Positions 5,266 to 29,865 are shown, counted from the first letter of the stretch. The stretch: DNA of 64,000 nt from an uncultured Gammaproteobacteria bacterium (GCA_964385285.1 CAYLOJ010000004.1:7736-71735), one strand, 5' to 3'. Numbers and translations are program-made. Notes: generated from the sequence alone by a model not told the origin.

Positions 5266-5268
5266 AGT

Positions 5269-6501: not shown

Positions 6502-6509
6502 AGAACTTA

Positions 6510-7082: not shown

Positions 7083-7096
7083 ATAGTAACAACCGA

Positions 7097-7978
7097 CTAT
7101 GGTAATAATAAAGTTGCACGACGCATACTCCAACAGCCAATCGACACCCCCACAAACCAAGAGGCGGGGTGCACATAGCGCGTCGTTAATTTCACGGCCA
7201 ACGCAGTTGTCTTTCCACCTACTCCCATCGGTCCGATATCGAGCGCATTAATTTTTTTCAATAAACGTTTTTCAATGGTCGCTAATTTAGGAATGGGATT
7301 ATGTCCGGTAATCGGTTGCAGATGACGATTTTTGGCACGATAACTTGATTCTTCCATATTGCCACAAACTGCTGCGCCAATAATATACGGTGGGCAACCA
7401 CGGCCTTGGGCTTTAATCACAGCGTCTACAATACATTTCTCAATTCCTTCTAAGTCTCGTTCTGCACCAATCGAACGATCTGGCAATTGATATTGACGTG
7501 AAACATTTTCAGAACCGCCGCCTTTTAATAGAAGTTGGATCTGGGACTGATCCTCAGTTTCCTTAAAATAGATAATGGGATAATTTCCAATCACCTTCCC
7601 TTGAATCACATCAAAAGCATTGGCGCGGAGCGGCACCTCCTTGGTCGCAATCGCGGTAGCCTCTTTGATGATTTTCTTTAAATCTAATTGCGTGTATTTT
7701 CCACTTTGATATTTTACATACAACAAAGGAATACCTGTATCTTGGCATAAGGGACGCGTCTCCGTTTCAGCCATTTCAATATTGGTCAGCATGGTTTTCA
7801 GGACATGCTTAGCGCGAGCGTTGGTTTCTTTGCGCAAACCAGATTTCAATCCGTCTACAACATCTTTAGGAAGATGAGTGACAGCCACGCGATACATCTC
7901 AACAATAGCAGCAATGAGTTCACGCCGCGATGGCTTGTTTCCAGCCAGCGTTAGAATATTTCCGTTGGTAGTAAGCAT
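7097..7978 (-). CDS. Class I fumarate hydratase, alpha (N-terminal domain) subunit
   Basis: CQDTGIPLLYVKYQ is the Fe-S hydro-lyase (FumA/TtdA) signature. The arrangement is two-subunit, archaeal-type. Confidence 0.75.
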   Translation of the reverse strand: MLTTNGNILTLAGNKPSRRELIAAIVEMYRVAVTHLPKDVVDGLKSGLRKETNARAKHVLKTMLTNIEMAETETRPLCQDTGIPLLYVKYQSGKYTQLDLKKIIKEATAIATKEVPLRANAFDVIQGKVIGNYPIIYFKETEDQSQIQLLLKGGGSENVSRQYQLPDRSIGAERDLEGIEKCIVDAVIKAQGRGCPPYIIGAAVCGNMEESSYRAKNRHLQPITGHNPIPKLATIEKRLLKKINALDIGPMGVGGKTTALAVKLTTRYVHPASWFVGVSIGCWSMRRATLLLP

Positions 7979-7980
7979 AG

Positions 7981-10326: not shown

Positions 10327-10346
10327 GGTAACTAATGGGTACCAAA

Positions 10347-11660
10347 TTATGGAATTTGAATTGTAGATTTACGCTCTGCACCAACGGACACAAGACTAAT
10401 TGGAGTTTCCACTTGGTCTTCAATGAATTTCATATATTCTTTCATGCGACTCGGTAATGCCTTGTAACCATTGTTCACAATAGTGACAAAATCTGCATCC
10501 GTCAGATTTTTCCAACCCGATATCTCTTTGTAAACTGGCTTGCAGTGGCGACTGAGTTCTAGGTCGGCTGGTAATTCAGTAATATAGGAATTTTTGTACT
10601 TATATTTCACAGCCACCGGAATTTTTTTCAAACCACCAAGCACATCAATTTTCGTCATGGCCATACTTGTTAACCCATTGATGCGTGAAGAGTAGCGTAG
10701 TTGCACTAAATCTACCCAACCACAACGCCGTGGACGACCAGTAGTGGTGCCATATTCTTGACCACGTTCCCGCAGATAATCTCCCATTGGGCCTTTAGCC
10801 TCAGTAGGAACAGGGCCGGAACCAACACGTGATAAATATGCTTTGACCACACCAATAATCTCATCAATTTTGGTAGGACCAATACCCACACCTGGGCAAA
10901 CTGCTCCAGCGATGGTATTCGATGAGGTGGTATGTGGGTAGGCACCATGATCGTTATCTAACAAAGTACCTTGGGCACCTTCAAACAAAATACTTTTACC
11001 AGCTTTCAACGCCTGATTCACCTCTAGTGATACATCACCAATATAGGGCTTCATGCGTTGGCCATATTTGTAATAGGTGTTGAAGATCGCTTCCTTATTT
11101 AGGGTAATTTTTTGTCGATAGAGTTTCTGTAAAGTATTTTTCTTCAATTCATACAGCTGATCAAATTTCTCCTTGAAGATTTTCTTGTTCAATAAATCTA
11201 CGATGCGAATACCAAAACGTTCTGCCTTATCAGCATAGGCTGGTCCAATTCCGCGACGTGTGGTGCCGGCACCGAGCGTACCCTTGTACTCATCAATCAT
11301 CCCGTCCATTAAAATATGGAATGGAAAGATTACGTGAGCGCGTTCTGAGATTAATAAGTTCAGTTTTTGACCCTTAGTTTCAAAATTATCAAGCTCTGAT
11401 AATAATACCTCGGGATCGATGACCATGCCGTTCCCCATCACAATCCGCTTCTTTGGATACAAAACGCCAGAGGGCAAAAGATGCAATTTGTGTACAACAC
11501 CATCCACCACAACCGTATGACCTGCGTTATTTCCACCTTGAAAACGCACCACGTAATCCACTGTGGGTGCTAAGTAGTCGATAATTTTACCTTTACCCTC
11601 GTCACCCCATTGGGCGCCGACGATCATGATGGCTTTGGCTTTGGGAACGCGTTTGGACAT
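10347..11660 (-). CDS. purA: Adenylosuccinate synthetase
   Basis: GAQWGDEGKGKIIDYL P-loop and GIGPAYADK motif. The start is chosen at MSKRVPKAK. Confidence 0.9.
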   Translation of the reverse strand: MSKRVPKAKAIMIVGAQWGDEGKGKIIDYLAPTVDYVVRFQGGNNAGHTVVVDGVVHKLHLLPSGVLYPKKRIVMGNGMVIDPEVLLSELDNFETKGQKLNLLISERAHVIFPFHILMDGMIDEYKGTLGAGTTRRGIGPAYADKAERFGIRIVDLLNKKIFKEKFDQLYELKKNTLQKLYRQKITLNKEAIFNTYYKYGQRMKPYIGDVSLEVNQALKAGKSILFEGAQGTLLDNDHGAYPHTTSSNTIAGAVCPGVGIGPTKIDEIIGVVKAYLSRVGSGPVPTEAKGPMGDYLRERGQEYGTTTGRPRRCGWVDLVQLRYSSRINGLTSMAMTKIDVLGGLKKIPVAVKYKYKNSYITELPADLELSRHCKPVYKEISGWKNLTDADFVTIVNNGYKALPSRMKEYMKFIEDQVETPISLVSVGAERKSTIQIP

Positions 11661-11698
11661 AATATTCTTAGAGACGCACAGCAATGCGCCTTTACAAG

Positions 11699-12550
11699 TT
11701 ATTCTTTAGATTTTTTAAGCGCACATTTGACCGTGTTTTCAATCAATTTAGCGACGGTCAAGCGGCCAACCCCACCTGGTGGGGGAGTGACTATACTACC
11801 CTGTTTAGATACAGAAGTAAAATCAATATCGCCATACATTTTGTTATCCACGAAAGAAACTCCTGCATCTACAACCACAGCTCCTCGCTTGATCATTTTA
11901 CCAGTCAGTACACCATGTACACCTACACCTGTAATCACGACATCAGCAGTTTTTGTGTAAGCCGATAGCTGCTTCGTGGAACGATTTAAAATGGAGACTG
12001 TTGCCTCTTCATGCATTAACATGTTGGCTAATGGGCGCCCCACTAAACTACCTGCTCCAATTAATACTACATTAGCTCCTTTTAAAGTGACTTGATGATA
12101 ACGCAAAATTTCAAGAATCGCACCTGGTGTTGGCGGTTCAATCCAATAACTGCCAGTCACTAATTTACCTAAATTGGTTTGAGTTAAACAATCCACATCG
12201 ATACTCGGTGCAATACTCTCTAAGACTTTACCTGTATTCACTTGCTTTGGTAGTGGTAATTGCACAATCAAACCGGTCAAACCGTGTTTGGGTTGTTGTA
12301 ACTGCTCTAACTCCGTAATGAGATCTTTGGTACTAATTCGGCTTGGTAGGTGCACCAACACAAAATCAACGCCACAGGCAGCGGCGGCCTCACCTTTCTT
12401 ACGCACATAGGTTTGCGAAGGCTTATGATTGCCTACCAGAACTACTCCTAGCTTTGGGGTAAATCCACCTTTGACTAAGGCTGGCACCTGTTTTTTGAGG
12501 CGCTTATAGATGCTACTGGCGATAGTGTGTCCGCTAACAATGGTGGTCAT
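11699..12550 (-). CDS. folD: Bifunctional methylenetetrahydrofolate dehydrogenase/cyclohydrolase
   Basis: GVVLVGNHKPSQTYVRKK...GRSLVGRPLANML...TPPPGGVG are FolD signatures. Confidence 0.85.
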   Translation of the reverse strand: MTTIVSGHTIASSIYKRLKKQVPALVKGGFTPKLGVVLVGNHKPSQTYVRKKGEAAAACGVDFVLVHLPSRISTKDLITELEQLQQPKHGLTGLIVQLPLPKQVNTGKVLESIAPSIDVDCLTQTNLGKLVTGSYWIEPPTPGAILEILRYHQVTLKGANVVLIGAGSLVGRPLANMLMHEEATVSILNRSTKQLSAYTKTADVVITGVGVHGVLTGKMIKRGAVVVDAGVSFVDNKMYGDIDFTSVSKQGSIVTPPPGGVGRLTVAKLIENTVKCALKKSKE

Positions 12551-12745: not shown

Positions 12746-14158
12746 TCAGCTTGTATGATTATGCTCATAAACCTGATTCTGCAAATAGAGGCAATTCCAT
12801 AAATTAAAACTTAAGAACTTACAAAACTCATTAATAAACATCTTGTCTTCGATCGTATAATTCTTGTGATTAATGCGGTCACTTAAGCAGAGCAAAGAGA
12901 TTAATTGATTATTATAGATGATGGGAAATATATTTTGGCAATGAAAATGATTTTTGACAGTTTGACTGACAAAGAAATTACTTTTCTGAAACTCCATGAA
13001 CCATCCTTCATCTTCTGCTATCTTGGAACGATTATGTGGGTAAACAGACTGAAAACTTCCGATATGTTTGTTATAGGTATAAATTGCTATGAATTCGACA
13101 GGCATTCTAGTCATGAAATGATCAACTGCTAAACGTACAAAAGCGTCTAGAGTGGGTATAGAATCAAGAATTTTCTGCTCATCAGCAGTAAGTTCATATA
13201 AATCAACTTGGGTTTGTGGAATGAAATAATGCACAACAATTTCTGCACATTTTTTAATAGGCCAAAATAAAATCAACATCACTGAGGAAAGTATTAATAA
13301 TATCAAGAAATAATTAGTAAATTGTGATACTAGAAGAAAATACAATATGATCACTATAATGATCTCTACCAGGAAACATAGGCAAATCAACAAGGCAAAT
13401 CTTCGAATATGATAGCGAATGCTGAAAATGCGATAACGTAATATAGCATAGGCAATAACGGCAGAAATAATACTTACACAAATTCCGCTTACAACTTGGG
13501 GTATGGATACAGCCAAAACTTCACTATGCGAATAACCTGCCCAAAATGTTTTTGCAATCAAAGGAATAACGACGTTTGCAGAAACAGCAATGAGGGTATT
13601 TAAACCGAAAGCAAATACTAATAGCTTGGCCTGCTCCTTTTTACGACCTATCGAGCGCATATACCCAAATGCCAACAGGATTATTAGAAGTGTTAATTGA
13701 AATAGTACTGCCGTGTACAATGGAATAGTGAAGCGAGCATTAGCTAGATAGAATAAGCTTGATTCTGAATCATAAATTTTTTCACCAACAATAAACTCTG
13801 GTATGTATGACATAACTACAAAAAAGGTCGTAATGATCAGTGTAATCCTTATGTGAAACGCTTTAAGATATTGCCTATCAAAAAAAATCCACAACAGCCA
13901 CAAAGTAGTAAACATGCCAGCAACCCCAAAGGCAAATGTTGATGCATTAAAGAAAAAATTAAATAGTGCGCCACGCTGTATAAAGAACGAAATGTACATG
14001 ACAATTTCCCATCCAATACTAAAAAACAGATTCACTAAATATATCTTTACTACTGGTGAGTGTAGATGGCGACTATTATTATAAAACCAAACCCCGACTG
14101 CTAGATCAAAGGCTACGCTGGCTAAAAATGTATATTGCATTAATGAGACCAATTCCAT
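12746..14158 (-). CDS. Polytopic membrane protein (~9 predicted TM helices) with a ~170-aa C-terminal cytoplasmic domain (possibly GAF-like/sensor). AT-rich.
   Basis: Repeated hydrophobic 20-aa segments across the first ~300 aa. AAGGAAG SD 7 nt upstream. GC clearly lower than its neighbours. Confidence 0.6.
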   Translation of the reverse strand: MELVSLMQYTFLASVAFDLAVGVWFYNNSRHLHSPVVKIYLVNLFFSIGWEIVMYISFFIQRGALFNFFFNASTFAFGVAGMFTTLWLLWIFFDRQYLKAFHIRITLIITTFFVVMSYIPEFIVGEKIYDSESSLFYLANARFTIPLYTAVLFQLTLLIILLAFGYMRSIGRKKEQAKLLVFAFGLNTLIAVSANVVIPLIAKTFWAGYSHSEVLAVSIPQVVSGICVSIISAVIAYAILRYRIFSIRYHIRRFALLICLCFLVEIIIVIILYFLLVSQFTNYFLILLILSSVMLILFWPIKKCAEIVVHYFIPQTQVDLYELTADEQKILDSIPTLDAFVRLAVDHFMTRMPVEFIAIYTYNKHIGSFQSVYPHNRSKIAEDEGWFMEFQKSNFFVSQTVKNHFHCQNIFPIIYNNQLISLLCLSDRINHKNYTIEDKMFINEFCKFLSFNLWNCLYLQNQVYEHNHTS

Positions 14159-14276: not shown

Positions 14277-14507
14277 TTATTGCACTTCCACCTGAGTATC
14301 AACCGTTTTTTCGGTGATCTCTACCGTGGTCTCTGAAACAGCGTTGATGATTGTCTCATCTTGAACAATACCTTGGTAATCAGCACTATCTGATAGTGAT
14401 TGTATGGGTGACCCATCCATCAACATGATGATATTGACCAATAGCGCAACCGATAATCCCGCCACAACTACCGCGATCACAGTCAGGGTAGTCAGCGAAC
14501 GTTTAAC
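14277..14507 (-). CDS. Small single-pass membrane protein (start chosen at MVKRSL)
   Basis: N-terminal hydrophobic helix LTTLTVIAVVVAGLSVALLVNIIMLM followed by an acidic tail. Confidence 0.35.
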   Translation of the reverse strand, partial: VKRSLTTLTVIAVVVAGLSVALLVNIIMLMDGSPIQSLSDSADYQGIVQDETIINAVSETTVEITEKTVDTQVEVQ

Positions 14508-14514
14508 CATAAAA

Positions 14515-15480
14515 TTAGTGAGCAATTGTCGTTACAGTATTCGTACCAGTACAGACACCTTCTACACCGCTGGTTGGAATAGCAATATTCCAGAAGAGCG
14601 ATTTGGTTAGAGGTGCGCCATCATTGGTGCGATAACCAATGTTGATATCCGTATCAGCCGGTGTGCCTGATAACGCAACCGCAGAACCATCCGAGTAACC
14701 TACATCTGTTAGCACCCATTTTTGATTTGCTACCGGAATAGCCCCTGCCACAGTGCACCCCATCGGACCTGCTGACGATACTTCAACATCAGCCTCATCA
14801 TTACCATATTGCTGTAAATCCATCTGAACATTATTAGCATTGGTGGTTGTTTGCCCTAAGGACAAAGAGCCGTATGGGATTGTACCAGGGATGGATAAAG
14901 CCAACCGCGTTTCCACTTCTTTATGTAATGAGTTGTTGGTGGCATTGGCTGCATCATTATCTGTAACTTTGACACTGACTACCCAATCTTCAGCGGACGC
15001 GACCCCTCCTGTCGATGTCGAATCTGTGTAGAATTGCAAAGCAACTGGGCAGTTATAATCTACTTGATCACCCGTTGAACCGTTCACAGTAGTACAGGAG
15101 ACAGCATAACAACCGTTGTTATCCGGAGTACAGCCTGCAGTGAGTGATGAACGATATAACACTGCTGCTACTGAGGTAATATCTGTTCGGCCATTCAGAT
15201 CTTCAGCAGTTCCAGTAATCTTATACATAGCGGTGCCACCAGCAATGAGTGATAAGGTACCACCCGCTCCACCTGTATTATCACTTTGTGTATAATCTGC
15301 ACCGGTCGTCACAAACACATCCACAATGCTTGGAACAGCATTCGCAATTGTGGCTGAAGTACTCGAACTATCGGCCTGAGAATTTAAGATCACAATCGCA
15401 GCGACCATCGAAACGCCAATAACGACTAGCGCTGCTCCTAATATCCAATGTGTAAAACTAATTGATTTTTTTTCTGCCAT
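14515..15480 (-). CDS. Secreted/surface protein, family A (Thr/Ser/Gly-rich, conserved CxxDNNxCY motif)
   Basis: N-terminal signal-anchor MAEKKSISFTHWILGAALVVIGV. It shares CTPDNNGCY, W..VKVTD.DA and a C-terminal SGVEGVC block with the 18538..19854 protein. Confidence 0.55.
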   Translation of the reverse strand: MAEKKSISFTHWILGAALVVIGVSMVAAIVILNSQADSSSTSATIANAVPSIVDVFVTTGADYTQSDNTGGAGGTLSLIAGGTAMYKITGTAEDLNGRTDITSVAAVLYRSSLTAGCTPDNNGCYAVSCTTVNGSTGDQVDYNCPVALQFYTDSTSTGGVASAEDWVVSVKVTDNDAANATNNSLHKEVETRLALSIPGTIPYGSLSLGQTTTNANNVQMDLQQYGNDEADVEVSSAGPMGCTVAGAIPVANQKWVLTDVGYSDGSAVALSGTPADTDINIGYRTNDGAPLTKSLFWNIAIPTSGVEGVCTGTNTVTTIAH

Positions 15481-15487
15481 ATCTTTC

Positions 15488-16744
15488 TTAATTAGTAATT
15501 GTATTAGAAGATAATTTTCGTTTTTTACGTACAACCATCATCACGATTATGATGGCAATCACACTGACAATGACAATGGCGATGATCGAGATCATGAGCG
15601 GTGTTAAAAATGTATCCGGCTTAAGTACTGTAAATGTCGTTGAAACTGCTTCCGTTTTTTTATTCGCATATTCGACGGACAGTTCAATTCGGTAATTTCC
15701 GGCTTCCGCAAATTGAAAAAAGTGGGAAAAGGTGGTCGTCTCGCCAGCATCCACAACTAATTCTTCACCGCGCAGATAATCGACTAAAGAATCATCCTTA
15801 TAAATATCTGCCAACAAAATACCTGTAATACGTGTGTCACCGGTATTTTCAAATTCCACATCTACCTTGATATTCTCATTCAGCTGATACTCTGCTTTAT
15901 TAGCTTTGACACTGACTACCTGACCAGTCTGAGCCAAGGTATTAGCAGGAAATACATCAAACGGTTGTGAGGTTAATGTCGCGACGGCTTGATCTTTATA
16001 GATAAAGGTAGCCACAGCGATGTATGAACCCTGAGCTAATTCGACCGGAGCAATAAAGGATAATTGATCATTGGTACCAGGTTCAGAATATTCAAGCGTA
16101 TCACCTGCAATTTCTGCAACGAATGTTTTGGCAGAATCTTGTCGATCCGTAAACACTAATTTAATTTGATCAGGACGCCAAGAAACATTGCCATCATTAT
16201 TAATGGTATATTCCATTAATAACTGATCATCTTCTTCAATCGACGCCGCAGACAGATCGGTCACCTGATAGGAGACAATTTCCGAACCACCAATGCCAAA
16301 TTTTACGACCGCAGCTGCTCCCTCCACCACTCGAGAGACTGCAGATGTTTGAGCATCCGTGGCCTCTGTCTCTGCATTCACCGGCGTTTCTGTAAACACA
16401 AAAATCGCCTCATAGTCACCGTTGGCAGCCTGCGCGGAGTTGATTTTAAATGTATAACTATAGTGCGACTCCCCTGCTGGAATCACAAATCCCTCTGGCG
16501 CTTCAACGGCATTCTCATATGGAGTGCGAACGCTGACGGTATAGGCAACATCTTCATTTAGCTGGGATGCTTCTTTGGAGACATCAATCGTCTTAGTTTG
16601 GCTCGAACCACGTAATACGCTGTCGATCTGGACTAATGGAGGAGAGATTCCAATTGCTGCCGCAGAGTGTGCACTCAATACACTTGCACCTAATACAAGA
16701 CTGCAACAAAGCAGTAATGAACGTAAAATCTTTTGATGACTCAT
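15488..16744 (-). CDS. Type I membrane surface protein, family B (signal peptide, mature N-terminus GISP, C-terminal TM anchor plus KKRK tail)
   Basis: Signal peptide MSHQKILRSLLLCCSLVLGASVLSAHSAAA. C-terminal MISIIAIVIVSVIAIIIVMMVVRKKRK. Beta-rich repetitive body. Confidence 0.6.
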   Translation of the reverse strand: MSHQKILRSLLLCCSLVLGASVLSAHSAAAIGISPPLVQIDSVLRGSSQTKTIDVSKEASQLNEDVAYTVSVRTPYENAVEAPEGFVIPAGESHYSYTFKINSAQAANGDYEAIFVFTETPVNAETEATDAQTSAVSRVVEGAAAVVKFGIGGSEIVSYQVTDLSAASIEEDDQLLMEYTINNDGNVSWRPDQIKLVFTDRQDSAKTFVAEIAGDTLEYSEPGTNDQLSFIAPVELAQGSYIAVATFIYKDQAVATLTSQPFDVFPANTLAQTGQVVSVKANKAEYQLNENIKVDVEFENTGDTRITGILLADIYKDDSLVDYLRGEELVVDAGETTTFSHFFQFAEAGNYRIELSVEYANKKTEAVSTTFTVLKPDTFLTPLMISIIAIVIVSVIAIIIVMMVVRKKRKLSSNTITN

Positions 16745-16810
16745 GAATGAAATTTTAGCGCAGTATAAACTTCAAAAAATTATACTATAAACAAGTGGAT
16801 TGGTCAACCA

Positions 16811-17176
16811 TTAATTGCGTAATAATGCAGTGATTATAAGGATCGCGATCACCACACTTAAGATGACAAACTTGAGCTTGAATTTATCTACTTTGCTGGA
16901 ATGCGTGCTGTAGGATACTTCGTAGGAACCATCCGGATTCCTGTGATAGAGTTTCTCAAAACTCTCCCCTTTATCATACAGCAACATCGCAGCCATCTGT
17001 TTTGGATTTTCAGTGATGATAAAACCATATATAATACTAGCAACCACAAAGCCAATCAAAAATCCCCAAAATAATTCATACTGAACCAGAGAAGTAAAAA
17101 ACAAATCAAGGCTTCTCTCTGAGGCTTGAATGGCAAATACTGCATTATCCATAGCCAGAATCATATCATGTTTCAT
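16811..17176 (-). CDS. Small two-TM membrane protein (uncertain; its start region collides with the signal peptidase start)
   Basis: ORF track. It has two hydrophobic helices. Confidence 0.3.
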   Translation of the reverse strand: MKHDMILAMDNAVFAIQASERSLDLFFTSLVQYELFWGFLIGFVVASIIYGFIITENPKQMAAMLLYDKGESFEKLYHRNPDGSYEVSYSTHSSKVDKFKLKFVILSVVIAILIITALLRN

Positions 17177-17698
17177 AACCTTTACCTATATCTTAAACGC
17201 GTCCTCCAAATTGGTGCGGCCATCGCAATTGCTGTCATTGTGACACGCAATGTATTTATCGATGTTGGCAAGGTAAATGGTAAATCGATGGAGCATACAT
17301 ATCTGGATCAAACCCTATTTCTTGTGAATCGCATTGGTCTACTCGTGCATGAACCACGGCGCGGCGATGTGGTGCAATTTTTTGATCCACATCCACAAAC
17401 CAAAGAATTACTGATCAAGCGTGTCATTGGTTTGCCGGGTGAACGGGTAAAAATTTCACAAAATGTTGTCTCTATTCTTAGTGCAGACGGAACAGAAGTT
17501 CTACTAGACGAACCGTATTTAGATACTGATACGACTACACAGACTGCCTCACATGATACCGTTATTTTTCCAGTCATCCCTGAACACAGTTTCTTTTTGC
17601 TCGGTGATAATCGAGATGAGAGTGTAGATTCACGCTATTTTGGCGTAATCCATCGATCACTGATTACCGGCAGTCTAATTCCGCTGCCGCAACTGTAA
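17168..17698 (+). CDS. lepB: Type I signal peptidase (LepB-like, catalytic Ser/Lys intact)
   Basis: Box B VNGKSMEHTY (Ser), box D LIKRVIGLPGE (Lys), box E GDNRDESVDSRYFG. N-terminal TM. The start is chosen at MFHNL; the ORF is open from 17126. Confidence 0.75.
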   Translation: MFHNLYLYLKRVLQIGAAIAIAVIVTRNVFIDVGKVNGKSMEHTYLDQTLFLVNRIGLLVHEPRRGDVVQFFDPHPQTKELLIKRVIGLPGERVKISQNVVSILSADGTEVLLDEPYLDTDTTTQTASHDTVIFPVIPEHSFFLLGDNRDESVDSRYFGVIHRSLITGSLIPLPQL

Positions 17699-18535
17699 AT
17701 ACGCGATAAACGCCACTAATAGAATACTTACCACACACAACAGGGTGATGACCCAGGTTTGATTATAAACCATCCATTCGGTTGTCTCCGTGTGACCATT
17801 GAGTTGAATCTCTGCTTGATACCAGGCGATTGTTTTGATCGTTGGCGTCGCTAGTGGAATGCTAAGTCTATTGGCGCCAGGTGCAATCACACTACTCGCA
17901 ACACTATCTGTGGTAGTAATCGTGCGACCATTACGTTTGATGATGACACGATACGGAAGATACTGTATGCCCGATGAATGTGACGAATCGATCTCCACAG
18001 TTTGCTCGACCGCAGCAGCATCAGACTGCACGTATGCAACTGGTAGATGTACCAGGTCGAGATCGGAATAATTGTCTCCCTGCACAGCAGTTTCGTTCGG
18101 AATAGTTAGGGCTGTGTCATGGGTGATCTGTACTGTACTGAGATGAGTAATACCAAATTGCACACTACTGCCTTGATCCGCCTGCACATCTTGTTCTTGT
18201 ACAAACTGTACTTGTATTGGGTATGTACCTACTGGGGAATCGATCGATGTATGGATAGTATAGGTAAACAGATACTCCTGCTCTACTGTAAACTCTGTCT
18301 GTTCAGCATCAATTGTGCAATGGCAATTTTCCGGCACATTAATATGCGTACTATATTGTACGGGTTCAATATTTGTTTGATTGAGCGTAACCGCTTGTGT
18401 AATAGAATCACCAGGTAATACATAGTGTTCAACAACGGAAGGCGCCAGACTCACAATGTCTGCAGCAACCGGTTGAACATTGAAGCAAACCAGCGCCACT
18501 CCTAACCCAACTGCGAGCTGTATTAACTTCTTCAT
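17675..18535 (-). CDS. Type I membrane surface protein, family B (signal peptide plus C-terminal TM anchor plus RQRN tail)
   Basis: Signal peptide MKKLIQLAVGLGVALVCFNVQPVAA and C-terminal VITLLCVVSILLVAFIAYLQLRQRN. Same architecture as 15488..16744 and 21252..22172. Confidence 0.6.
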   Translation of the reverse strand: MKKLIQLAVGLGVALVCFNVQPVAADIVSLAPSVVEHYVLPGDSITQAVTLNQTNIEPVQYSTHINVPENCHCTIDAEQTEFTVEQEYLFTYTIHTSIDSPVGTYPIQVQFVQEQDVQADQGSSVQFGITHLSTVQITHDTALTIPNETAVQGDNYSDLDLVHLPVAYVQSDAAAVEQTVEIDSSHSSGIQYLPYRVIIKRNGRTITTTDSVASSVIAPGANRLSIPLATPTIKTIAWYQAEIQLNGHTETTEWMVYNQTWVITLLCVVSILLVAFIAYLQLRQRN

Positions 18536-18537
18536 AC

Positions 18538-19854
18538 TTAGTCGAGTACGGCAATGTAATAAATGGTGTTGCTACAACTGCCTTCAATCCCAGAATTGGG
18601 TACACGCAATTTTAAATAGGTATCTTTAATGGCCGCAAAGACCTCGCTTGTTCTGGCTACTAATGCCAAATTTACATTCGTATCCGTGTTTGAGAGTGCT
18701 TGGTCCCCTACGCCATAGGTGAATCCATTCGTAAAGGATAGGTGAATATTACTGGTGGGTATGGTTCCACGTGTACAACTAATATCGCCACTGGCGGATT
18801 GAGTCGCATCAATATTACGATTACCCGTGTTCGTAAATGCGAGCGTCTGTTGAGGTGAATCAACGCCGAGCGTTAATGTGCCGTAATTCACAGAAGCACC
18901 GACATCTAAGGCTAACAAACTATTCATTTCAAACGCATCGCTAGAATTTGCAGTGGCCGTAGCATCATCAGTCACTTTGACAAAGTTAGTCCAATTCGTA
19001 GACGCACCTGGAGAACCGGCGTCCGTCGCATCGGCATAATATTGAATCGGAATGACTGCTTCATAATCAATCGTAGTATCAGCACCACCTGAACAATTAC
19101 TGAGTGTAAAGGCAACAGTATTGGTATCCAACTGATAACAATTATTATTATCGGCACTGCAACTTGTACCGCCCGCAACATCACTTTTATATGCCGTGAC
19201 TGCCCATTGCGTTTTTGCGTCAATCTGCGAACAGCCATCGGCATCGGTCGCTGTTCCTCTAATATATAAATTGGTAGTTGAACCATCCGTTAAATTGAAA
19301 GATCCTTGATCACTACCGCCACTCGTTGTCGTTGTGATTACAGAATCCACGGATGGTGTGGCATTCCCACTGCTGCTGGCCGTGGCGCAAATTTTATTCG
19401 TGTAGGCAGCGGCGTCTCCGATATGCGCATTTGTGGTGACCGCAGACATGGAAGCAATGGTTGTATCATACCCTGCACAATTGGTTGCTTGATAACCAAC
19501 TGAAACCGTACCGCTACTTACGGATAAGCAGGCATTATTTGCGTAATTCATTTGTGTTTTCTGCTCGACATGGGCATTCGTGACGTCCGACAATTTTGCA
19601 ATCGTATCATAGGTACCAGAACAAGATGTGCCTAATCCTGCTACACCAGAACAACAGACCAATTGACTGTAATTGGCTTGACTAGCTAATTCAGCATGCG
19701 CATTACTAGTACCTGCCATGCGCAATACTACTGTACCACTAGGGCAACTTGTACCTACTGTGCAAGATAACGTGCCGGCTAGTGCAACCGGTGCGATGCC
19801 GCAGACTGCAATAAGAACCATGCCAACAACAAGAGATCGGTATTTACCAGGCAT
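18538..19854 (-). CDS. Secreted/surface protein, family A (Cys-rich N-terminal extension with three [ST][ST]NAH repeats)
   Basis: Signal peptide MPGKYRSLVVGMVLIAVCGIAPVALA. CSADNNNCY, NWTNFVKVTDDATATAN and a C-terminal SGIEGSC block are homologous to 14515..15480. Confidence 0.55.
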   Translation of the reverse strand: MPGKYRSLVVGMVLIAVCGIAPVALAGTLSCTVGTSCPSGTVVLRMAGTSNAHAELASQANYSQLVCCSGVAGLGTSCSGTYDTIAKLSDVTNAHVEQKTQMNYANNACLSVSSGTVSVGYQATNCAGYDTTIASMSAVTTNAHIGDAAAYTNKICATASSSGNATPSVDSVITTTTSGGSDQGSFNLTDGSTTNLYIRGTATDADGCSQIDAKTQWAVTAYKSDVAGGTSCSADNNNCYQLDTNTVAFTLSNCSGGADTTIDYEAVIPIQYYADATDAGSPGASTNWTNFVKVTDDATATANSSDAFEMNSLLALDVGASVNYGTLTLGVDSPQQTLAFTNTGNRNIDATQSASGDISCTRGTIPTSNIHLSFTNGFTYGVGDQALSNTDTNVNLALVARTSEVFAAIKDTYLKLRVPNSGIEGSCSNTIYYIAVLD

Positions 19855-21175
19855 ATACGCGCACCTCTCCACGGCCACCAGCGCCACCATTGCCACCAGA
19901 TGTTGTGCCGCCACCGCCACCGCCGCCACCTGCACCTAACGCACCATCTCCTCCGATACTACCCGCGCTATCCGTATCTCCACCACCACCGCCGCCAGAA
20001 CCACCACAAGCACCTTTGTTACTGGCTGCACCATTACCACCAACTGCTGATGTGGCACCGCCAATACCGCCAATAGCACCACCACCAGAGGCATAACGAC
20101 CAGTAGTACTACCAGCTCCACCAGCTGTACCGGCGTTGGCTGTTGTTACACCACCACCAGCGCCACCACCAGGACATCCATACATCGATGATCCGCCAGT
20201 ACCGCCCGCTGCAGGTACAGCGGAGCTGCCTGCGCCACCGCCGCCACCCCACTCCGCACCAGCACCTGTTACTCCAATAGCTCCCTGTTGACCTTGACCA
20301 CCGAATGCAGCTGCAGCAGAAGCTCCTGGAGCACCGCCGGAAACTGCAGTCGTTCCTGTACCTGTTATACCTGCGCCAGCAGTACCGCCACCGCCGCCAC
20401 CAACTGAAATATTGGCTGCGATGCCGCCTTCACCGCCACCGCCACCGCCTGCAAAACACAAAGTGCCACCGAATGTCGAGTTTCCACCAGCGCCACCGGC
20501 TGTACCAGAAGCACTACTGCCACCGCCGCCGGCAGTTCCACCAACACCCACATTAACAGATTCTGTTGAACCAAGATCCGCTGCACTAAAGGTGCGTTCA
20601 GTCAGTGCGCCACCGCCGCCGCCGCCACCGCCAATACGTGCAGAGGCTGCCGCTCCACCGTTGCCGCCGCCACCGCCGCCACCGCCGCCAATACAGACTA
20701 CTTTTACAGTCGTAACCCCGGCTGGTTTATTCCAGGTGTTGGCGCCTGTTGCAGTAAAGATTTGGACATCTCCTATCTTTCCCCAAGTACCGTTTCCTTC
20801 CCAAAACGACCCGGCACCCGCATTCGTACCCCCGTTTAAATTATTTACTGATAGATCTCCTGTCACCCCATTTGCCAGATTCACTTGTGACCAGGCAGGA
20901 TTATTGCTACCACCGGTATTGGATAAATAACGGGTGGCGGTAGTATTTTTTGCCAAAGCAACAATGGTGTTCGCCGCGGAACCATATAAGAGATCTCCCT
21001 GAGCAATCGTATTTAAACCTGTACCGCCTTGCGATGGCGTGACCAAAACATCACCAACTTCCGACCACGTATGTCCAGGATTCGGAGCAGCTGCCATCGC
21101 AATTTTAATGACAGAGGTGGCAAGACAAATCAATAAAAAAACGGATAGGATTGGATTAAAATATTTGAGTCTCAT
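19844..21175 (-). CDS. Secreted glycine-rich protein: ~150-aa N-terminal globular domain followed by ~280 aa of poly-Gly/Ala/Thr/Ser tracts
   Basis: Signal peptide MRLKYFNPILSVFLLICLATSVIKIAMA. Runs of G8-G10. Very high local GC from GGN codons. Ends RGEVRVYAW. Confidence 0.55.
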   Translation of the reverse strand: MRLKYFNPILSVFLLICLATSVIKIAMAAAPNPGHTWSEVGDVLVTPSQGGTGLNTIAQGDLLYGSAANTIVALAKNTTATRYLSNTGGSNNPAWSQVNLANGVTGDLSVNNLNGGTNAGAGSFWEGNGTWGKIGDVQIFTATGANTWNKPAGVTTVKVVCIGGGGGGGGGNGGAAASARIGGGGGGGGALTERTFSAADLGSTESVNVGVGGTAGGGGSSASGTAGGAGGNSTFGGTLCFAGGGGGGEGGIAANISVGGGGGGTAGAGITGTGTTAVSGGAPGASAAAAFGGQGQQGAIGVTGAGAEWGGGGGAGSSAVPAAGGTGGSSMYGCPGGGAGGGVTTANAGTAGGAGSTTGRYASGGGAIGGIGGATSAVGGNGAASNKGACGGSGGGGGGDTDSAGSIGGDGALGAGGGGGGGGTTSGGNGGAGGRGEVRVYAW

Positions 21176-21251: not shown

Positions 21252-22172
21252 ATGAAGCTATTTAAACACTCTCGTCCTGCAATCGTCTCTACTCTCGGAT
21301 TACTACTTTTGGGATGTTGTTTTATTCCACGCGCAAGCTGGGCATTGGGAATTAGTCCGGCTAATCTGGAATATCAACAGATTAAGACGAATTCCATTAT
21401 CCATGGCCAACTCTTGGTTTCCGGCACAAATAGCGTGACTACTGATACGCTCAACATTACGGCTACTGGTGAAGCAGCTGGAGCAATTGAATTGCCAGTG
21501 AATCAGATTACATTAGCTCCGCAAACGACTACACCTATTAACTACTCAATCAATACGGCTGGCTTAGAGCCCGGTAACTACACAGCTGATCTTTCGATCG
21601 TTCAGGCAATATCTGAAAAAAAAGTCGAAGACAATACCTCTGCCGTACAGACTGGAGCCACTGTACATGTACAGTTTTCAGTAACCACTGAAGATATTCA
21701 TCAATTATCTATTGATGGTGTCGAACTACGCACTACTGAGCAACCGATCACTCTGCAGTATCGATTGATTAATGGAGGGAATGTGAGCGATCGACCACTC
21801 AGTGCGACCTTGGCCATACAGAATCTCTCCACACACGAATCAAGACTCCTGACGATTGATGATCTATCATGGGTTGATCCATTTAACTCAATATCAGCCA
21901 ACATTCAATTACCCAGCAATCTCTCTGGTGGCAATTACGCCATCAGCGTTCAATTTACGAGTAATGATGGTGAGACTCTCTACACAAGCAGTGAACAACA
22001 CTTTCAGATTCCACTGACCTGGTACGAAACCATCACCCGAGCCAGTACAGCTCACCCCGTCACTGGGTTCATGATCACATTGGGTTGTTTACTCATCAGT
22101 GGTGCTGGCTTTTGGCTATATCAGAAGCGCGCACGCAGCACGTCCACAAAGTCAGCCAAGCACTCTGCTTGA
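21252..22172 (+). CDS. Type I membrane surface protein, family B (signal peptide, mature N-terminus LGISP, C-terminal TM anchor plus KRAR tail)
   Basis: Signal peptide ...IPRASWA / LGISPANLEYQQ. C-terminal FMITLGCLLISGAGFWLYQKRAR. Ig-like repetitive body. Confidence 0.6.
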   Translation: MKLFKHSRPAIVSTLGLLLLGCCFIPRASWALGISPANLEYQQIKTNSIIHGQLLVSGTNSVTTDTLNITATGEAAGAIELPVNQITLAPQTTTPINYSINTAGLEPGNYTADLSIVQAISEKKVEDNTSAVQTGATVHVQFSVTTEDIHQLSIDGVELRTTEQPITLQYRLINGGNVSDRPLSATLAIQNLSTHESRLLTIDDLSWVDPFNSISANIQLPSNLSGGNYAISVQFTSNDGETLYTSSEQHFQIPLTWYETITRASTAHPVTGFMITLGCLLISGAGFWLYQKRARSTSTKSAKHSA

Positions 22173-22209: not shown

Positions 22210-23301
22210 ATGGCCGACATTTTAGATTTCCCTTTAGCCCTAACATTTGATGATGTTTTGCTGATTCCTCAAAAATCAGAGGTTTTGCCGCGCGATGTTA
22301 GCTTGCGCACAAAATTGACCAAATCCCTGTATTTAGAAATTCCACTATTATCGTCGCCCATGGATACCGTAACCGAAGCCTCTATGGCTATTGCCATGGG
22401 TAAAGAAGGTGGCCTGGGTATTTTGCATAAGAACATGGATGAGGACCAGCAAGTAGCAGAGGTCAAAAAGGTTAAACAAGCGGGTTTCTTGGCAGGCGCT
22501 GCGGTCAGCGTAGGTGAAAAAGCGATGCGTCGCGCTGAAGCGTTGATTGCTGCGCGCGTCGATGTTTTGGTGGTAGATAGCGCACATGGCCATTCTAAAG
22601 GAGTCATTGATATGGTGGCCTATTTGAAAAAAACCTATCCTACTATTCAGGTGATTGGTGGTAACGTCGCTACTCCAGAGGCCACAAAAGATCTGATCAA
22701 AGCAGGGGCAGATGCAGTTAAGGTAGGAATTGGTCCTGGTTCAATTTGTACGACTCGTATTGTGGCCGGTATCGGCGTTCCACAGCTCACGGCTATTATG
22801 ATGTGCGCAAAAGAAGCTAAGAAATCTGGTGTACCGATTATTGCCGATGGTGGCATCCGTTATTCTGGTGATATTGTGAAAGCGTTAGCGGCTGGTGCAA
22901 GCGCAGTGATGATGGGTGGTGTGCTAGCTGGTACTGATGAGGCTCCGGGTGAAGTAGTAGAAGACAAGGGTACTAAAATGAAGGTATATCGCGGAATGGG
23001 CTCACTGGAAGCAATGGAACGTGGTAGTAAAGATCGTTACTTACAAGAATCTGTAACCGAAGCTAAGAAACTGGTACCAGAAGGAATTGTTGGAAAAATT
23101 AAGTACAAAGGCCCTGTTGATACGGTCGTTTACCAGTTATTAGGTGGTTTGCGAGCTGGTTTAGGTTATTGTGGAGCCGAAACCATTGAAGAACTACACA
23201 AACGTGCCAAATTTGTCCGGATTACCAATGCTGGTATCCGCGAAAGCCATCCGCATAGTCTTTCCTACATTGCCGACGCTCCCAACTATACTTTAAATTA
23301 A
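22210..23301 (+). CDS. guaB: IMP dehydrogenase, short form lacking the CBS (Bateman) subdomain
   Basis: [13 protein letters not shown]...[11 protein letters not shown]...[20 protein letters not shown] are IMPDH signatures. The sequence runs from the SSPMDTVTE block into the second barrel half with no CBS pair. 363 aa. Confidence 0.85.
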
Positions 23302-23312
23302 TTGTCGTTAAA

Positions 23313-24377
23313 TTAATTTGGTCCAAGTGATCGCTGCAATGCGCCGTAATCCTGCGCATTTTTTAGTTCACGAGAGATCGCTAAACTATGTTGTTGAAAT
23401 TCATCCTCAACTGCAAATAGTTGCTCTTGCAGACCGGCAATATCCCTATCTCCTTGTGCCACTAGGTCACGCAGACGATCTCGCTGATCAGCTGTTTTCA
23501 ATAATTGGACATTCGCTTTTAGTTCAAGAATCATCTCACGACGTAAAGCTACGCTCTGTAACTTAAATTCGGAAGCTTTTCTCCCTAATTCAATAAGCGC
23601 TTTTTTATTTGGTATTTCATCTGGCACATTTGTACCTAGCTTCTGATACAGTACAGCAAACTCTTCGTCAGAGATTAACTCCTGTTCTACACGATGCATC
23701 ACTAATTCATAGTAACGTGTGGCCCGGACATTATACTCGCGGTCAGGCAGATCTTGCCGCGGTTTATCTGGAGGCAACGTTAACATCTTTACTTCTGGTA
23801 GCGCTAACATCTGGCGATAAGCATCATGAGCTGCTTGATAAAAGGCGGTCACCTCTGGACTATTCGAGGGCGCAGACAACTCTGCATCAATCAATAAATC
23901 ATTCATTCGTGCTAAAACCATCCCCCGCTCCTGCAGCAAATTCATCGGAACATTATTGGTAGTAGCCAACGAATCCTGCAGGGCTTGCGGTGCTGGTTCT
24001 TCTCCGTCCATATCTGACATTGCTATCTGCTCAAATGCGCTTACCAACTGATCAAGACGTTGATCGCAAGCTTCCCGCATTTTCTGATTCAGATCGAGCA
24101 GTTGAGTAGAACAATCAACCAGTGCCTGGCCATTTTTAAATTCGGTTCGCTTTGAAAAAATGGATAATCTAAATTCAACAATTGCATCTTGATCTCGACT
24201 GATTTCTTCCTTGCGACTGATCAAACTCCAGCGCTGTCTATCATTGCTGGCTAATGCTTCACGGTATTTGGAATTTTCTTTTTTCCAGCCTTTGTCTTCC
24301 TCTTGGTCAGCATGATCAGCTGATCCTTCTGCTTCATTATTGTGATCTGGTTTTTTTGTTTCTAATCTTTGTGTCAT
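23313..24377 (-). CDS. Hypothetical coiled-coil protein
   Basis: 355-aa ORF, charged/helical, no recognised motif. The start is chosen at MTQRLETKK. Confidence 0.45.
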   Translation of the reverse strand: MTQRLETKKPDHNNEAEGSADHADQEEDKGWKKENSKYREALASNDRQRWSLISRKEEISRDQDAIVEFRLSIFSKRTEFKNGQALVDCSTQLLDLNQKMREACDQRLDQLVSAFEQIAMSDMDGEEPAPQALQDSLATTNNVPMNLLQERGMVLARMNDLLIDAELSAPSNSPEVTAFYQAAHDAYRQMLALPEVKMLTLPPDKPRQDLPDREYNVRATRYYELVMHRVEQELISDEEFAVLYQKLGTNVPDEIPNKKALIELGRKASEFKLQSVALRREMILELKANVQLLKTADQRDRLRDLVAQGDRDIAGLQEQLFAVEDEFQQHSLAISRELKNAQDYGALQRSLGPN

Positions 24378-24418
24378 GGTTATAGAATAACACAAAAAAC
24401 TATGAAAGTCAAGTATAA

Positions 24419-25807: not shown

Positions 25808-25830
25808 GGTTGTAGTATAACATATAACCA

Positions 25831-25857
25831 AAAATCCCCTCCTGGACAGGAGGGGAT
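25831..25857 (-). terminator. Rho-independent terminator downstream of rpoC
   Basis: cccctcc-tggaca-ggagggg hairpin at 25836-25855, followed on the minus strand by ATTTTTGG. Confidence 0.6.
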
Positions 25858-25884
25858 AAATCACGCAGTGATTTTGGGGAGGTG

Positions 25885-29847: not shown

Positions 29848-29865
29848 ATATTGATGCGTTACCGG

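Follow-up and report, generated by a model that had tools for sequence, protein, structure and literature searches.

Two related genes in a 64,000-nucleotide stretch of DNA, hereafter called the window, encode members of a protein family that we term family A. We give roughly even chances to the proposal that this family provides the secreted, disulfide-bonded, Ig-like two-domain subunits of a fiber or adhesin system of ultrasmall CPR bacteria, encoded in an operon with its own signal peptidase. The observations behind this proposal are the paralogy of the two genes, their export signals, a two-domain Ig-like fold, cysteine covariation, the content and order of the operon, modular fusions, and the restriction of the family to CPR bacteria.

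Family A and its two members in the window

The shorter gene, A_short, is an open reading frame at 14515..15480 on the (−) strand that encodes 321 amino acids. The protein starts with a signal-anchor and an N-terminal extension, after which come two beta-sandwich domains of Ig-like type. The longer gene, A_long, lies at 18538..19854 on the (−) strand and encodes 438 amino acids from its ATG, with a GTG at 19935 as a possible longer start. Read from the ATG, the protein begins with an ordinary, canonical signal peptide (ending ...VALA↓GTLSC), continues with what we call the NAH module, and closes with a family A core that carries no N-terminal extension. The two genes had been taken for relatives in a preliminary description on the basis of shared motifs, and their homology far exceeds chance similarity (31% identity across 294 amino acids, BLASTP E 2e-29). 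The quoted motifs are present in both genes (CTPDNNGCY / CSADNNNCY; WVVSVKVTDNDAANATN / WTNFVKVTDDATATAN; SGVEGVC / SGIEGSC).

The family had not been recognized in that description, and no sequence in Pfam, NCBIfam, or the PDB matches it here; a Pfam domain was found in none (0/40) of the close A_short homologs. The family is large, with no fewer than 2,844 clusters when grouped at 50% identity; its profile matches 2,844 representatives at E<=1e-3, of which 1,234 still match at E<=1e-30. Every named member is from a Parcubacteria-type CPR bacterium, the group to which the family is confined; the sources are given as Patescibacteria group, Parcubacteria group, Ca. Uhrbacteria, Kaiserbacteria, and Kerfeldbacteria. 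The MAG that carries one related locus (L006) is labeled Gammaproteobacteria and is probably mis-binned.

The AF2 model of A_short (pLDDT 90.4) consists of a TM helix or signal-anchor, with the helix at residues 8 to 33, followed by the two Ig-like domains. Residues 1 to 36 (15373..15480, (−) strand) form the long conserved signal-anchor F-T-H-W-ILGAAL... (family consensus HWxLGGAL), which ends in an NSQA↓D signal peptidase I site; the hydrophobic N-terminal segment of family A is long, at 21 to 23 residues. An S/T-Q-A↓D cleavage site is kept in the ~320-amino acid form of the family, along with an amphipathic N-terminal extension of ~10 residues. Position −3 is S/T/A in 153/171 sequences, position −1 is A/G in 159/172, and position +1 is D in 107/158. 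The extracellular location suggested earlier thus agrees with export signals that have a conserved −3/−1 cleavage site. Residues 37 to 49 (15334..15372, (−) strand) make up the mature N-terminal extension, which is amphipathic and T/S-rich and ends at the near-invariant N47-x-x-P50. Its odd positions 39/41/43/45 are V/T/A/I-rich and its even positions are polar, and in the monomer model it is coil (pLDDT 67–82). We consider this segment a candidate donor strand.

The N-terminal beta-sandwich domain spans residues 50 to 190 (14911..15333, (−) strand; strands taken from the AF2 model) and contains two cysteine pairs as well as the motifs G-x-x-x-D-x-N-G-x-x-D-I, C-T-x-D-x-N-x-C-Y, and W166...D174. 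In residues 191 to 321 (14518..14910, (−) strand), the conserved linker LLALxIPxxIxYGTL leads into the C-terminal Ig-like domain, which has the pair C242–C310 and the motifs G-N-D-E-A-D-V-E-V, Q-K-W-x-L-T-D, Y-W-N-I-x-I-P, and G-V-x-G-x-C-T-G-T. With hhalign, this domain aligns collinearly but weakly with the one at the C-terminus of NAH-320 proteins (P ~1e-3, probability 10–16%). Disulfide stabilization, originally proposed from the presence of paired cysteines, gains from the covariation of three pairs across 217 family members. Expressed as both present/first only/second only/neither, the counts are 206/0/0/8 for C242–C310, 184/5/3/24 for C129–C144, and 191/0/23/2 for C117–C124. Both proteins also have the T/A/S/G/N-rich composition that had been noted.

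An adhesin- or fiber-like character had been suggested as well, and the modeled fold, two Ig-like sandwiches, is of a type known from pilins and adhesins. The best Foldseek matches of family A are a CfaB–CfaB donor-strand fusion and the FimH–FimC entry 1kiu. The structural matches are generic Ig-like ones with low TM-scores (<=0.37), a point against the fiber proposal. Both structure predictions are monomer models. The model of A_short is confident and a missing strand is not obvious in it, which counts against a strand-exchange fiber; self-complementation is frequent in monomer models of such proteins.

The three tandem repeats reported for the longer paralog are present (TSNAHAEL, VTNAHVEQ, and TTNAHIGD), each within a unit of ~45 amino acids. 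When local alignments were compared with 2000 shuffles, repeats 1 and 2 scored 74 vs 23.4±4.7 and repeats 2 and 3 scored 65 vs 25.8±5.1, with a weaker relationship between repeats 1 and 3 (p 0.018). Together they form a 140-amino acid domain with 8 cysteines, residues 27 to 166 of A_long (19357..19776, (−) strand), each repeat bearing an N-A-H motif. The repeats had, however, been described as a trait of family A, and in this respect the description is refined: the NAH module is an independent, mobile domain fused to A_long. Among 160 retrieved proteins matching either query, the NAH domain occurs without an A core in 87, joined to unrelated C-terminal regions, and it is combined with an A core in just 6, A_long included. 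The module may resemble the C-terminal Cys/His-rich domain of PCSK9 and the resistin fold in being disulfide-rich and all-beta, with three repeated modules in pseudo-threefold symmetry, and conserved His residues occur in both it and the PCSK9 domain. Sequence identity to the latter is 11%, however, the module is half as large (140 vs about 240 amino acids), and unlike PCSK9 it is bacterial, heading secreted proteins of CPR bacteria at their N-terminus. The likeness may be one of analogy rather than homology.

Other A-core proteins mostly lack the S/T-Q-A↓D site and the extension, and often possess "head" modules instead. In adhesin-like proteins of up to 2,200 amino acids, with LamG, PKD, SdrD_B, or fn3 domains, the A core is the exact C-terminus, which is the architecture of two-domain tip adhesins. 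Clusters usually pair an extension-bearing A protein with a second A-core protein (A′) whose signal peptide is ordinary. A′ of L002, L004, L006, and L007, A_long of the window, and a 758-amino acid head-plus-core protein of L014 clearly lack the extension. The A′ protein of L009 retains an extension-like N-terminus, which counts against the fiber proposal; L015 has no second core gene, and A′ of L016 was left out of the reading.

The gene cluster

At every locus with enough flanking sequence, family A occurs together with family B and a signal peptidase of the S26 family, an association that had been put forward for checking. The order signal peptidase I (S26), ~115-amino acid TM protein, B1, and A is conserved at 8/8 loci with upstream flank, and a membrane protein of ~78 amino acids with the C-terminal motif TSVxV...VxTxVxV follows A at 9/9 loci. 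In the window, the signal peptidase gene (17126..17698, (+) strand; probable start 17168) matches PF10502 (E 6e-34) and TIGR02227 (115 bits) and encodes intact catalytic boxes, namely SMEHT (Ser), KRVIGLPGE (Lys), and GDNRDESVDSRY; it occupies the same place at 8/8 loci. Divergently paired with it is the gene for a two-TM membrane protein of ~113–121 amino acids (16811..17176, (−) strand; probable start 17152), which has orthologs at 8/8 loci and no Pfam or NCBIfam match.

Three family B proteins are encoded in the window. Each begins with a signal peptide, has beta-rich domains, and ends in a TM helix followed by a basic tail. B1 (418 amino acids; 15488..16744, (−) strand) has about three Ig-like domains, one of them weakly CARDB-like. 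Its orthologs lie immediately upstream of A at 8/8 loci, and a B–A fusion protein is found in Ca. Kerfeldbacteria. We propose that B1 is a membrane-anchored chaperone or platform. B2 (286 amino acids; 17675..18535, (−) strand) has a beta-rich ectodomain, is encoded immediately downstream of A_long, and is undetected by the B1 profile; a B2-like gene also follows the head-plus-core gene of L014. B3 (306 amino acids; 21252..22172, (+) strand) has two B1-related beta domains and is detected by the B1 profile at E 1e-19. The B proteins of the window and of five related loci give only weak matches, to CARDB, DUF7507, and WxLIP.

The small protein that follows A_short (14277..14510, (−) strand) is 77 amino acids long from its ATG, with a TTG at 14525 as an alternative start in the list of open reading frames. 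Its TM helix is N-terminal, an acidic/Ser-Thr linker comes next, and the extreme C-terminus is formed by a beta-hairpin-like motif, ...TTVEITEKTVDTQVEVQ. Counterparts with the same position and architecture follow the A gene at 9/9 loci, and the protein could serve as a membrane-tethered strand donor or anchor. Immediately upstream of A_long, with an 11-nucleotide overlap, is a gene for a tail-fiber-like glycine-rich protein (19844..21175, (−) strand; Gly_rich_2, PF21722, 28.2 bits vs a cut-off of 24.3), homologs of which adjoin NAH-domain genes in L010 and L011. The cluster is flanked by genes for purine biosynthesis, folD, guaB, fumarase, and others, and none of the 20 Pfam-scanned flanking open reading frames (1188..12550 and 22210..42134) is an ATP synthase gene. 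At L011, a different cluster with NAH-domain proteins abuts ATP synthase.

Likeness to known pili

The Pam pili of CPR bacteria have been solved by cryo-EM (Troman et al. 2026 preprint, bioRxiv 10.64898/2026.03.03.709456; PDB entries 25PZ/25QA). They are built from the pilins PamA, PamB, and PamE (PamA, QHN43273.1; PamB, QHN43269.1), with PamC and PamD as chaperones, PamR as the anchor, and PamT as the tip. The pilins have two Ig-like domains and 2–3 cysteine pairs and undergo donor-strand exchange: a strand from the neighboring subunit fills in the C-terminal domain, whose Ig fold is open (truncated). The chaperones are PapD/FimC-like and are anchored in the membrane by a C-terminal TM helix (bioRxiv 10.64898/2026.03.03.709456).

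Family A has many features in common with this system as described. Both are restricted to CPR bacteria, and both involve Sec-secreted pilins or pilin-like proteins whose two domains are, as predicted for family A by its model, a sandwich of about nine strands at the N-terminus and an Ig-like fold at the C-terminus. To the 2–3 cysteine pairs of Pam pilins correspond the three covarying pairs of family A, accompanied by its conserved cleavage site. The Pam and window clusters each hold several pilin or pilin-like paralogs, and neither has a trans-envelope machine. They may also share Ig-like proteins that carry a signal peptide and end in a TM helix, and a neighbor of tail-fiber-like or Gly-rich type. 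The systems differ in that the dedicated signal peptidase I, the ~115-amino acid two-TM protein, and the ~77-amino acid hairpin-ended membrane protein are unmentioned for the pam operon, and in that purine biosynthesis genes flank the window cluster whereas ATP synthase flanks Pam. Named family A members belong to Parcubacteria-type lineages (Uhrbacteria, Kaiserbacteria, and Kerfeldbacteria), whereas Pam is reported chiefly from Saccharimonadia and Microgenomatia. In family A the N-terminal extension is the candidate for the donated strand; in Pam this strand is the inter-domain linker.

Chaperone–usher pili of Gram-negative bacteria (Fim, Pap, and CFA/I) likewise have Ig-like subunits and a conserved C-terminal last-strand motif. 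Their logic is as proposed here, since their major subunits have an N-terminal extension, and their tip adhesins, composed of a head and a pilin domain, have none. Family A differs in its two-domain subunits, membrane-anchored candidate chaperones, and dedicated signal peptidase, and in having neither an outer membrane nor an usher; the cluster proteins of the window and five related loci show no Pfam match to a PapD-family chaperone (PapD_N/PapD_C, PF00345/PF02753) or to an outer-membrane usher. A sortase-assembled Gram-positive pilus (SipA/LepA) was also considered and rejected. The C-terminus of family A, ...TGTNTVTTIAH, has neither an LPXTG sorting signal nor a TM tail, and no cluster protein matches a sortase family.

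Alternative structures and a proposed assembly

A non-polymerizing surface display complex like WxL/Csc of Firmicutes, wherein the A core would be a docking or stalk module that binds family B or the cell wall, is an unlikely reading, but one that accounts for several observations. WxL proteins reportedly occur as small and large forms (Siezen 2006, Brinster 2007, Galloway-Pena 2015). A-core proteins, likewise short or long and variable in their heads, parallel these, and the WxL clusters of Lactobacillales (DUF916-DUF3324; Csc, WxLIP), like family A clusters, combine short and long secreted proteins that have a common C-terminal module with partners that have a signal peptide, a beta domain, and a C-terminal TM helix. 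The B proteins share the DUF916/DUF3324 architecture, with two or three beta domains, and two independent sub-threshold matches agree: B3 with WxLIP_HBD (PF11797; E 4.6e-5, 23.8 bits vs a cut-off of 28.9) and a 334-amino acid protein of L010 with WxLIP_PGBD (PF06030; E 0.018); the remaining B proteins gave no such match. Orphan A-core genes amid housekeeping genes (L012 and L013), distant from any cluster, and proteins in which the A core is N-terminal and large RCC1 propellers follow it fit a simple display stalk equally well. However, both WxLIP matches are under Pfam thresholds, the WxL domain (PF13731) is found in 0/35 family A members at E<=1, and a small LPXTG protein is missing. Nor does a display complex account for why the operon has its own signal peptidase, why the amphipathic mature N-terminus is conserved, why proteins with and without the extension are systematically paired, or why a membrane-tethered hairpin protein is present.

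A signal peptidase gene within the operon recalls instead tapA-sipW-tasA of Bacillus (PMC9245690; see also PMC9674648 and PMC10151520). In a TasA-like extracellular matrix fiber, peptidase-released subunits would self-assemble by N-terminal strand donation, chaperone-free and with a TapA-like nucleator, rather than as a cell-anchored pilus. TasA and the archaeal bundling pili (AbpA) form fibers via N-terminal donor-strand complementation with an accessory protein that supplies a complementing strand, as in the fiber proposed here, and the conserved mature N-terminus of family A suits such a design. The third domain of the B1 profile also weakly matches the N-terminal region of TasA (PDB 5of1 and 8aur, E 0.07–0.09). 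We nonetheless consider a matrix fiber improbable. TasA is a single jelly-roll domain (Peptidase_M73 family), and the TasA/camelysin family of Pfam (given as PF12389 in PMC9245690) has no match among family A members at the thresholds used. SipW is an ER/archaeal-type peptidase, whereas the window enzyme is of the bacterial P-type (TIGR02227), and the membrane-anchored B proteins and small TM proteins favor a cell-attached assembly. Least probable of all is an S-layer or envelope lattice, wherein family A would tile the surface in two dimensions, held by an N-terminal helix whose length is compatible with a retained anchor, because the conserved −3/−1 motif and the dedicated peptidase encoded next to family A point to this helix being cut off, several paralogs with different N-termini per cluster and A cores at the C-terminus of giant adhesins are atypical of S-layer proteins, and Pfam searches of the window cluster proteins and family members found no SLH or other wall-binding domain.

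For the strand-complementation fiber, we propose that A_short is the major (shaft) subunit. It would enter the membrane via its signal-anchor and be cut after S/T-Q-A by the cluster signal peptidase, which would free the mature protein, with an amphipathic, beta-strand-like extension made up of its first ~10 residues. This strand, or the conserved inter-domain linker as in Pam pili, could complement the Ig-like domain of a neighbor, and subunits would thereby be joined head-to-tail into a thin fiber. Indirect data in favor of such complementation are the conservation of the linker, the extension itself, and the hairpin end of the small membrane protein. A-core proteins with an ordinary signal peptide and no extension would accept a strand but could not donate one, and would therefore take the tip position. 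A_long is proposed to be one such tip adhesin, with the NAH module as its binding head. Family B proteins may hold or present subunits at the membrane, as proposed for PamC and PamD, and the ~77-amino acid protein may plug the basal subunit with its hairpin-like end and so tether the fiber. The best reading of family A is a surface fiber that would polymerize by strand complementation, with a design nearest to that of the CPR Pam pili.

Family A, a large family of two-domain secreted proteins

Both ORFs of the preliminary description were found on the minus strand, namely A_short (14515..15480, 321 aa) and A_long (18538..19854, 438 aa counted from its ATG). The ATG start of A_long is favored because it yields a canonical signal peptide, which ends at VALA, directly before GTLSC. 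The proposed paralogy of the two genes holds (BLASTP E 2e-29, 31% identity, 294 residues aligned), every motif quoted for them is present in the two proteins, and their T/A/S/G/N-rich composition is borne out in the sequence. The triple repeat suspected at the N terminus of A_long is real as judged against 2000 shuffles, wherein repeats 1 and 2 scored 74 (shuffled 23.4 ± 4.7), repeats 2 and 3 scored 65 (shuffled 25.8 ± 5.1), and repeats 1 and 3 gave p 0.018. The overall interpretation, that these are extracellular, disulfide-stabilized proteins of an adhesin- or fiber-like type, is supported.

Neither paralog, among all ten cluster proteins scanned, matched a Pfam or NCBIfam model, and a Pfam scan of 35 aligned family A members returned noise only. 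Searches of PDB sequences with single sequences and profiles gave zero matches for A_short, A_long, or the family profile, and none of the 40 close homologs from a word-indexed search bears a Pfam domain. A scan of 1.84 billion cluster representatives with the family profile recovered 2,844 representatives at E<=1e-3 and 1,234 at E<=1e-30, such that the family comprises at least 2,800 clusters at 50% identity. With one exception, the named sources of its members are all CPR bacteria (Patescibacteria group, Parcubacteria group, Ca. Uhrbacteria, Kaiserbacteria, and Kerfeldbacteria). The exception is a MAG labeled “uncultured Gammaproteobacteria bacterium” (locus L006, CAZELN010000005.1) that holds a complete CPR-type cluster, and this contig is probably mis-binned or mislabeled. 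A related-locus search with a narrower family alignment found six loci. One Ca. Uhrbacteria MAG carries three tandem family A genes at a contig start (L005, 279..3265; the products are 317-318 aa long, and the HW signal-anchor and N-terminal extension are present in every one), along with two more A loci (L007 and L008).

The AF2 model of A_short, built from a 35-sequence alignment (pLDDT 90.4), comprises a helix (residues 8-33), a coil (34-50), a beta-sandwich (51-189), and a second beta domain (195-320). We counted cysteine co-variation over 217 aligned members as both present, first only, second only, or neither. The pair C242-C310 gave 206/0/0/8, C129-C144 gave 184/5/3/24, and C117-C124 gave 191/0/23/2. 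A_long is without the 129/144 pair and has two different cysteines, 208 and 254, in its place.

In members of the ~320-aa form, the signal-anchor (LHWILGGALLLIG...) is long and unusually conserved, and the cleavage motif has S/T/A at -3 (153/171), A/G at -1 (159/172), and D at +1 (107/158). Across the roughly ten residues past the cleavage site, positions 39, 41, 43, and 45 are V/T/A/I-rich and the residues between are polar, and the near-invariant N47-x-x-P50 follows. In the monomer model of A_short, this N-terminal extension is a coil with lowered pLDDT.

A conserved operon around family A

The minus-strand series of genes in the window encodes, in order, a Gly-rich protein, A_long, the membrane-anchored beta-rich protein B2 (17675..18535), the type I signal peptidase S26, a two-TM protein of ~113-121 aa, a second membrane-anchored beta-rich protein B1 (15488..16744), A_short, and a 77-aa membrane protein. 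The S26 gene (17126..17698, plus strand) lies on the strand opposite to its neighbors. A third B-type gene, B3 (21252..22172, plus strand), is divergent and upstream of the Gly-rich gene. S26 matches PF10502 (E 6e-34) and TIGR02227 (115 bits), with its Ser, Lys, and GDNR...DSR boxes all kept. Orthologs support internal ATG starts for S26 (17168) and for the ~115-aa two-TM protein (16811..17176, minus strand; ATG 17152). If these are used, the two starts are just ~15 nt apart and leave no room for separate promoters.

The core order of S26, small TM protein, B1, and A is kept in all eight loci that have the upstream flank (the window, L002, L004, L006, L007, L009, L014, and L015). A JGI contig beyond these eight has the same order, as judged by gene size and Pfam from gene calls alone. 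B1 orthologs all run from a signal peptide through about three beta domains to a C-terminal TM helix with a basic tail. The B1 profile picks up B3 (E 1e-19) and one or two more upstream B-type proteins per locus, and reached neither B2 nor the chaperone-like proteins of two related loci, L010 and L011. A homolog search with B3 returned B3 itself alone. A profile search against the PDB gave B1 a marginal match to the TasA N terminus (E 0.07), which we treat as a pattern resemblance.

A small protein of 75-82 aa follows the A gene in nine of nine loci. The copy in the window (77 aa, 14277..14510, minus strand) likely starts at ATG 14510 rather than TTG 14525; the others lie at 10985..11233 (L002), 10982..11209 (L004), 10970..11209 (L006), 10919..11149 (L007), 5479..5727 (L009), 8990..9232 (L014), 4235..4474 (L015), and 1200..1436 (L016). 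Its architecture is constant. A TM helix at the N terminus leads into an acidic/Ser-Thr linker, and the chain ends in the conserved motif TSVxV...VxTxVxV(E). This C-terminal motif looks like a beta-hairpin, and it resembles the amphipathic mature N terminus of A_short.

The first gene after B1 always encodes the ~320-aa A form. Other A-core proteins have ordinary signal peptides: the second A-core genes (A') of L002, L004, L006, L007, and L016, which are placed after the small gene, as well as A_long and, in L014, a “head + core” protein of 758 aa. In those whose N terminus was read (all but L016 A'), the core begins 2-5 residues past the predicted cleavage site or right after the head domain. 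The A' protein of L009 departs from this extension-less pattern. Among the best 150 of the 2,844 profile matches, a dozen proteins of 595-2,206 aa have the A core as their exact C terminus, preceded by LamG, PKD, SdrD_B, or fn3 domains; in others the core comes first and RCC1 propellers or Fib_succ_major domains follow. Two of these proteins that we checked are encoded by orphan genes amid housekeeping genes, with no cluster components among their neighbors. A 740-aa protein of Ca. Kerfeldbacteria (P0175 / P0311, OGY85753.1) joins family B, including its C-terminal TM helix, to the whole of family A, including the signal-anchor. Its presence on five contigs makes a gene-calling error unlikely.

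The flanks of the cluster (1188..12550 and 22210..25864) encode SAICAR synthetase, FGAM synthase subunits, an AIR synthase-type protein, adenylosuccinate synthetase, folD, IMP dehydrogenase (guaB), a two-subunit fumarase, and malic enzyme, a gene set that looks metabolically rich for a CPR genome. Directly downstream of the cluster, a gene (12746..14158, minus strand) encodes a multi-pass membrane protein of 470 aa whose C-terminal part is soluble and which has neither a Pfam nor an NCBIfam match; this position is taken by sensor histidine kinases and response regulators in L002 and L016. Elsewhere, the window encodes a secreted-type subtilase (Peptidase_S8, 35105..36940, minus strand), an Amidase_2 peptidoglycan hydrolase (39268..40212, minus strand) where the DNA is locally GC-rich (GC 0.51), and a LexA repressor (40374..41021, plus strand). 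Rfam and tRNA scans found no RNA genes in the window.

The NAH module and its other partners

The three-repeat head of A_long, which we call the NAH module, is a genuinely undescribed domain that is modeled with high confidence (AF2 pLDDT 95.9, pTM 0.89). The model is all-beta, with four strands in each repeat, and the module has eight conserved cysteines in total, as well as one N-A-H motif per repeat. Most of the 334 matches to an A_long query cover residues ~27-166 alone, at 60-72% identity. Among proteins from two homolog searches, 87 join the module to unrelated C-terminal parts and only six, including A_long, join it to the A core. The most frequent partner is a ~160-aa beta-rich domain; dockerin, Big_6, PG_binding_1, and CarboxypepD_reg domains also occur. 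Retention of 60-72% identity across distant CPR lineages, together with partners of pilin-like, dockerin, peptidoglycan-binding, and Ig-like types, suggests a conserved ligand.

Genes for NAH-domain proteins with another C-terminal domain (NAH-320) form a separate conserved cluster in L010 (8354..19618) and L011 (8936..17233). It includes a homolog of the Gly-rich protein, the NAH-320 protein along with a paralog that shares its C-terminal domain, dockerin- and cohesin-type proteins, and a chaperone-like protein that has both a signal peptide and a C-terminal TM helix. An ATP synthase operon lies directly downstream in L011. The family A profile found no family A member in these two clusters. 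The C-terminal domains of family A and NAH-320 align collinearly over all motif blocks, though the hhalign match is weak (probability 10-16%, P ~1e-3) and homology is therefore not claimed.

The Gly-rich protein (PF21722 Gly_rich_2; 19844..21175, minus strand) adjoins A_long, and its homologs lie beside NAH-domain genes in L010 (6700..8214) and L011 (8936..9967), such that the association recurs in three unrelated loci. Its N-terminal domain is conserved (APNPGH...LYGSA...RYLSNTG).

A candidate surface fiber of Parcubacteria-type lineages

Cryo-EM has resolved two filaments, the Pam pili, of Ca. Mycosynbacter amalyticus, which is a CPR bacterium (Troman et al. 2026, bioRxiv 10.64898/2026.03.03.709456). 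The pilins PamA and PamB combine an N-terminal sandwich of nine strands with a C-terminal Ig-like domain that is truncated, and they donate a linker strand; each has two or three Cys pairs, and PamA bears a glycan. PamC and PamD are PapD/FimC-like membrane-anchored chaperones with C-terminal TM helices, PamR is a membrane-anchored terminator that inserts an N-terminal strand, PamT is a head-less tip subunit, and the system occurs mainly in Saccharimonadia and Microgenomatia (bioRxiv 10.64898/2026.03.03.709456). In architecture, the cluster in the window closely resembles the Pam design, with the B proteins as candidate counterparts of the chaperones. The window's cluster differs in having a signal peptidase of its own and two small membrane proteins that are conserved, in its setting among purine biosynthesis genes, folD, and guaB, in its Parcubacteria-type lineage, and in its candidate donor strand, which is the N-terminal extension rather than a linker. 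The Gly-rich protein may be the counterpart of the “tail fibre-like protein” reported in Pam neighborhoods, and the NAH-320 cluster of L010 and L011 may be the true Pam-operon counterpart in those genomes.

The best-supported mechanism for the cluster, to which we give an even chance, is a surface fiber built by strand complementation. A_short would be the shaft subunit, cut by the cluster's own signal peptidase; A_long would be a tip adhesin headed by the NAH module; the B proteins would act as assembly factors anchored in the membrane; and the hairpin-ended micro-protein would anchor the fiber. The main rival, which we consider unlikely, is a WxL/Csc-like complex that would display such proteins at the surface without polymerizing. 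Membership was tested and fails for WxL/DUF916 complexes, as it does for TapA-SipW-TasA, the SipA-dependent pili of S. pyogenes, and chaperone-usher pili.

A more specific form of the strand-complementation reading is possible rather than probable, wherein the cluster would encode a second, previously undescribed class of donor-strand surface pilus, widespread among CPR bacteria of the Parcubacteria half. The shaft subunit would have its donor strand at the N terminus, unmasked by the dedicated signal peptidase I, and a membrane-tethered beta-hairpin micro-protein of ~77 aa would serve as the anchor at the fiber base. The tip adhesins would be interchangeable, with a new, extremely conserved, PCSK9-CHRD-like NAH head of three repeats recognizing a ligand on the surface of a host or partner.

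A lifestyle of attachment to other microbes is presumed for CPR/Patescibacteria, and to our knowledge the molecules of CPR-partner contact are almost entirely unannotated. Family A is large, lacks a Pfam or NCBIfam model, and sits in a tightly conserved operon. Concrete parts that can be tested have come out of the analysis, namely a cleavage site, candidates for the donor strand, the anchor peptide, and the chaperones, and a proposed tip adhesin. If it builds a fiber, the family A system would be a candidate attachment organelle of Parcubacteria-type lineages, in which Pam pili are not reported as prevalent.
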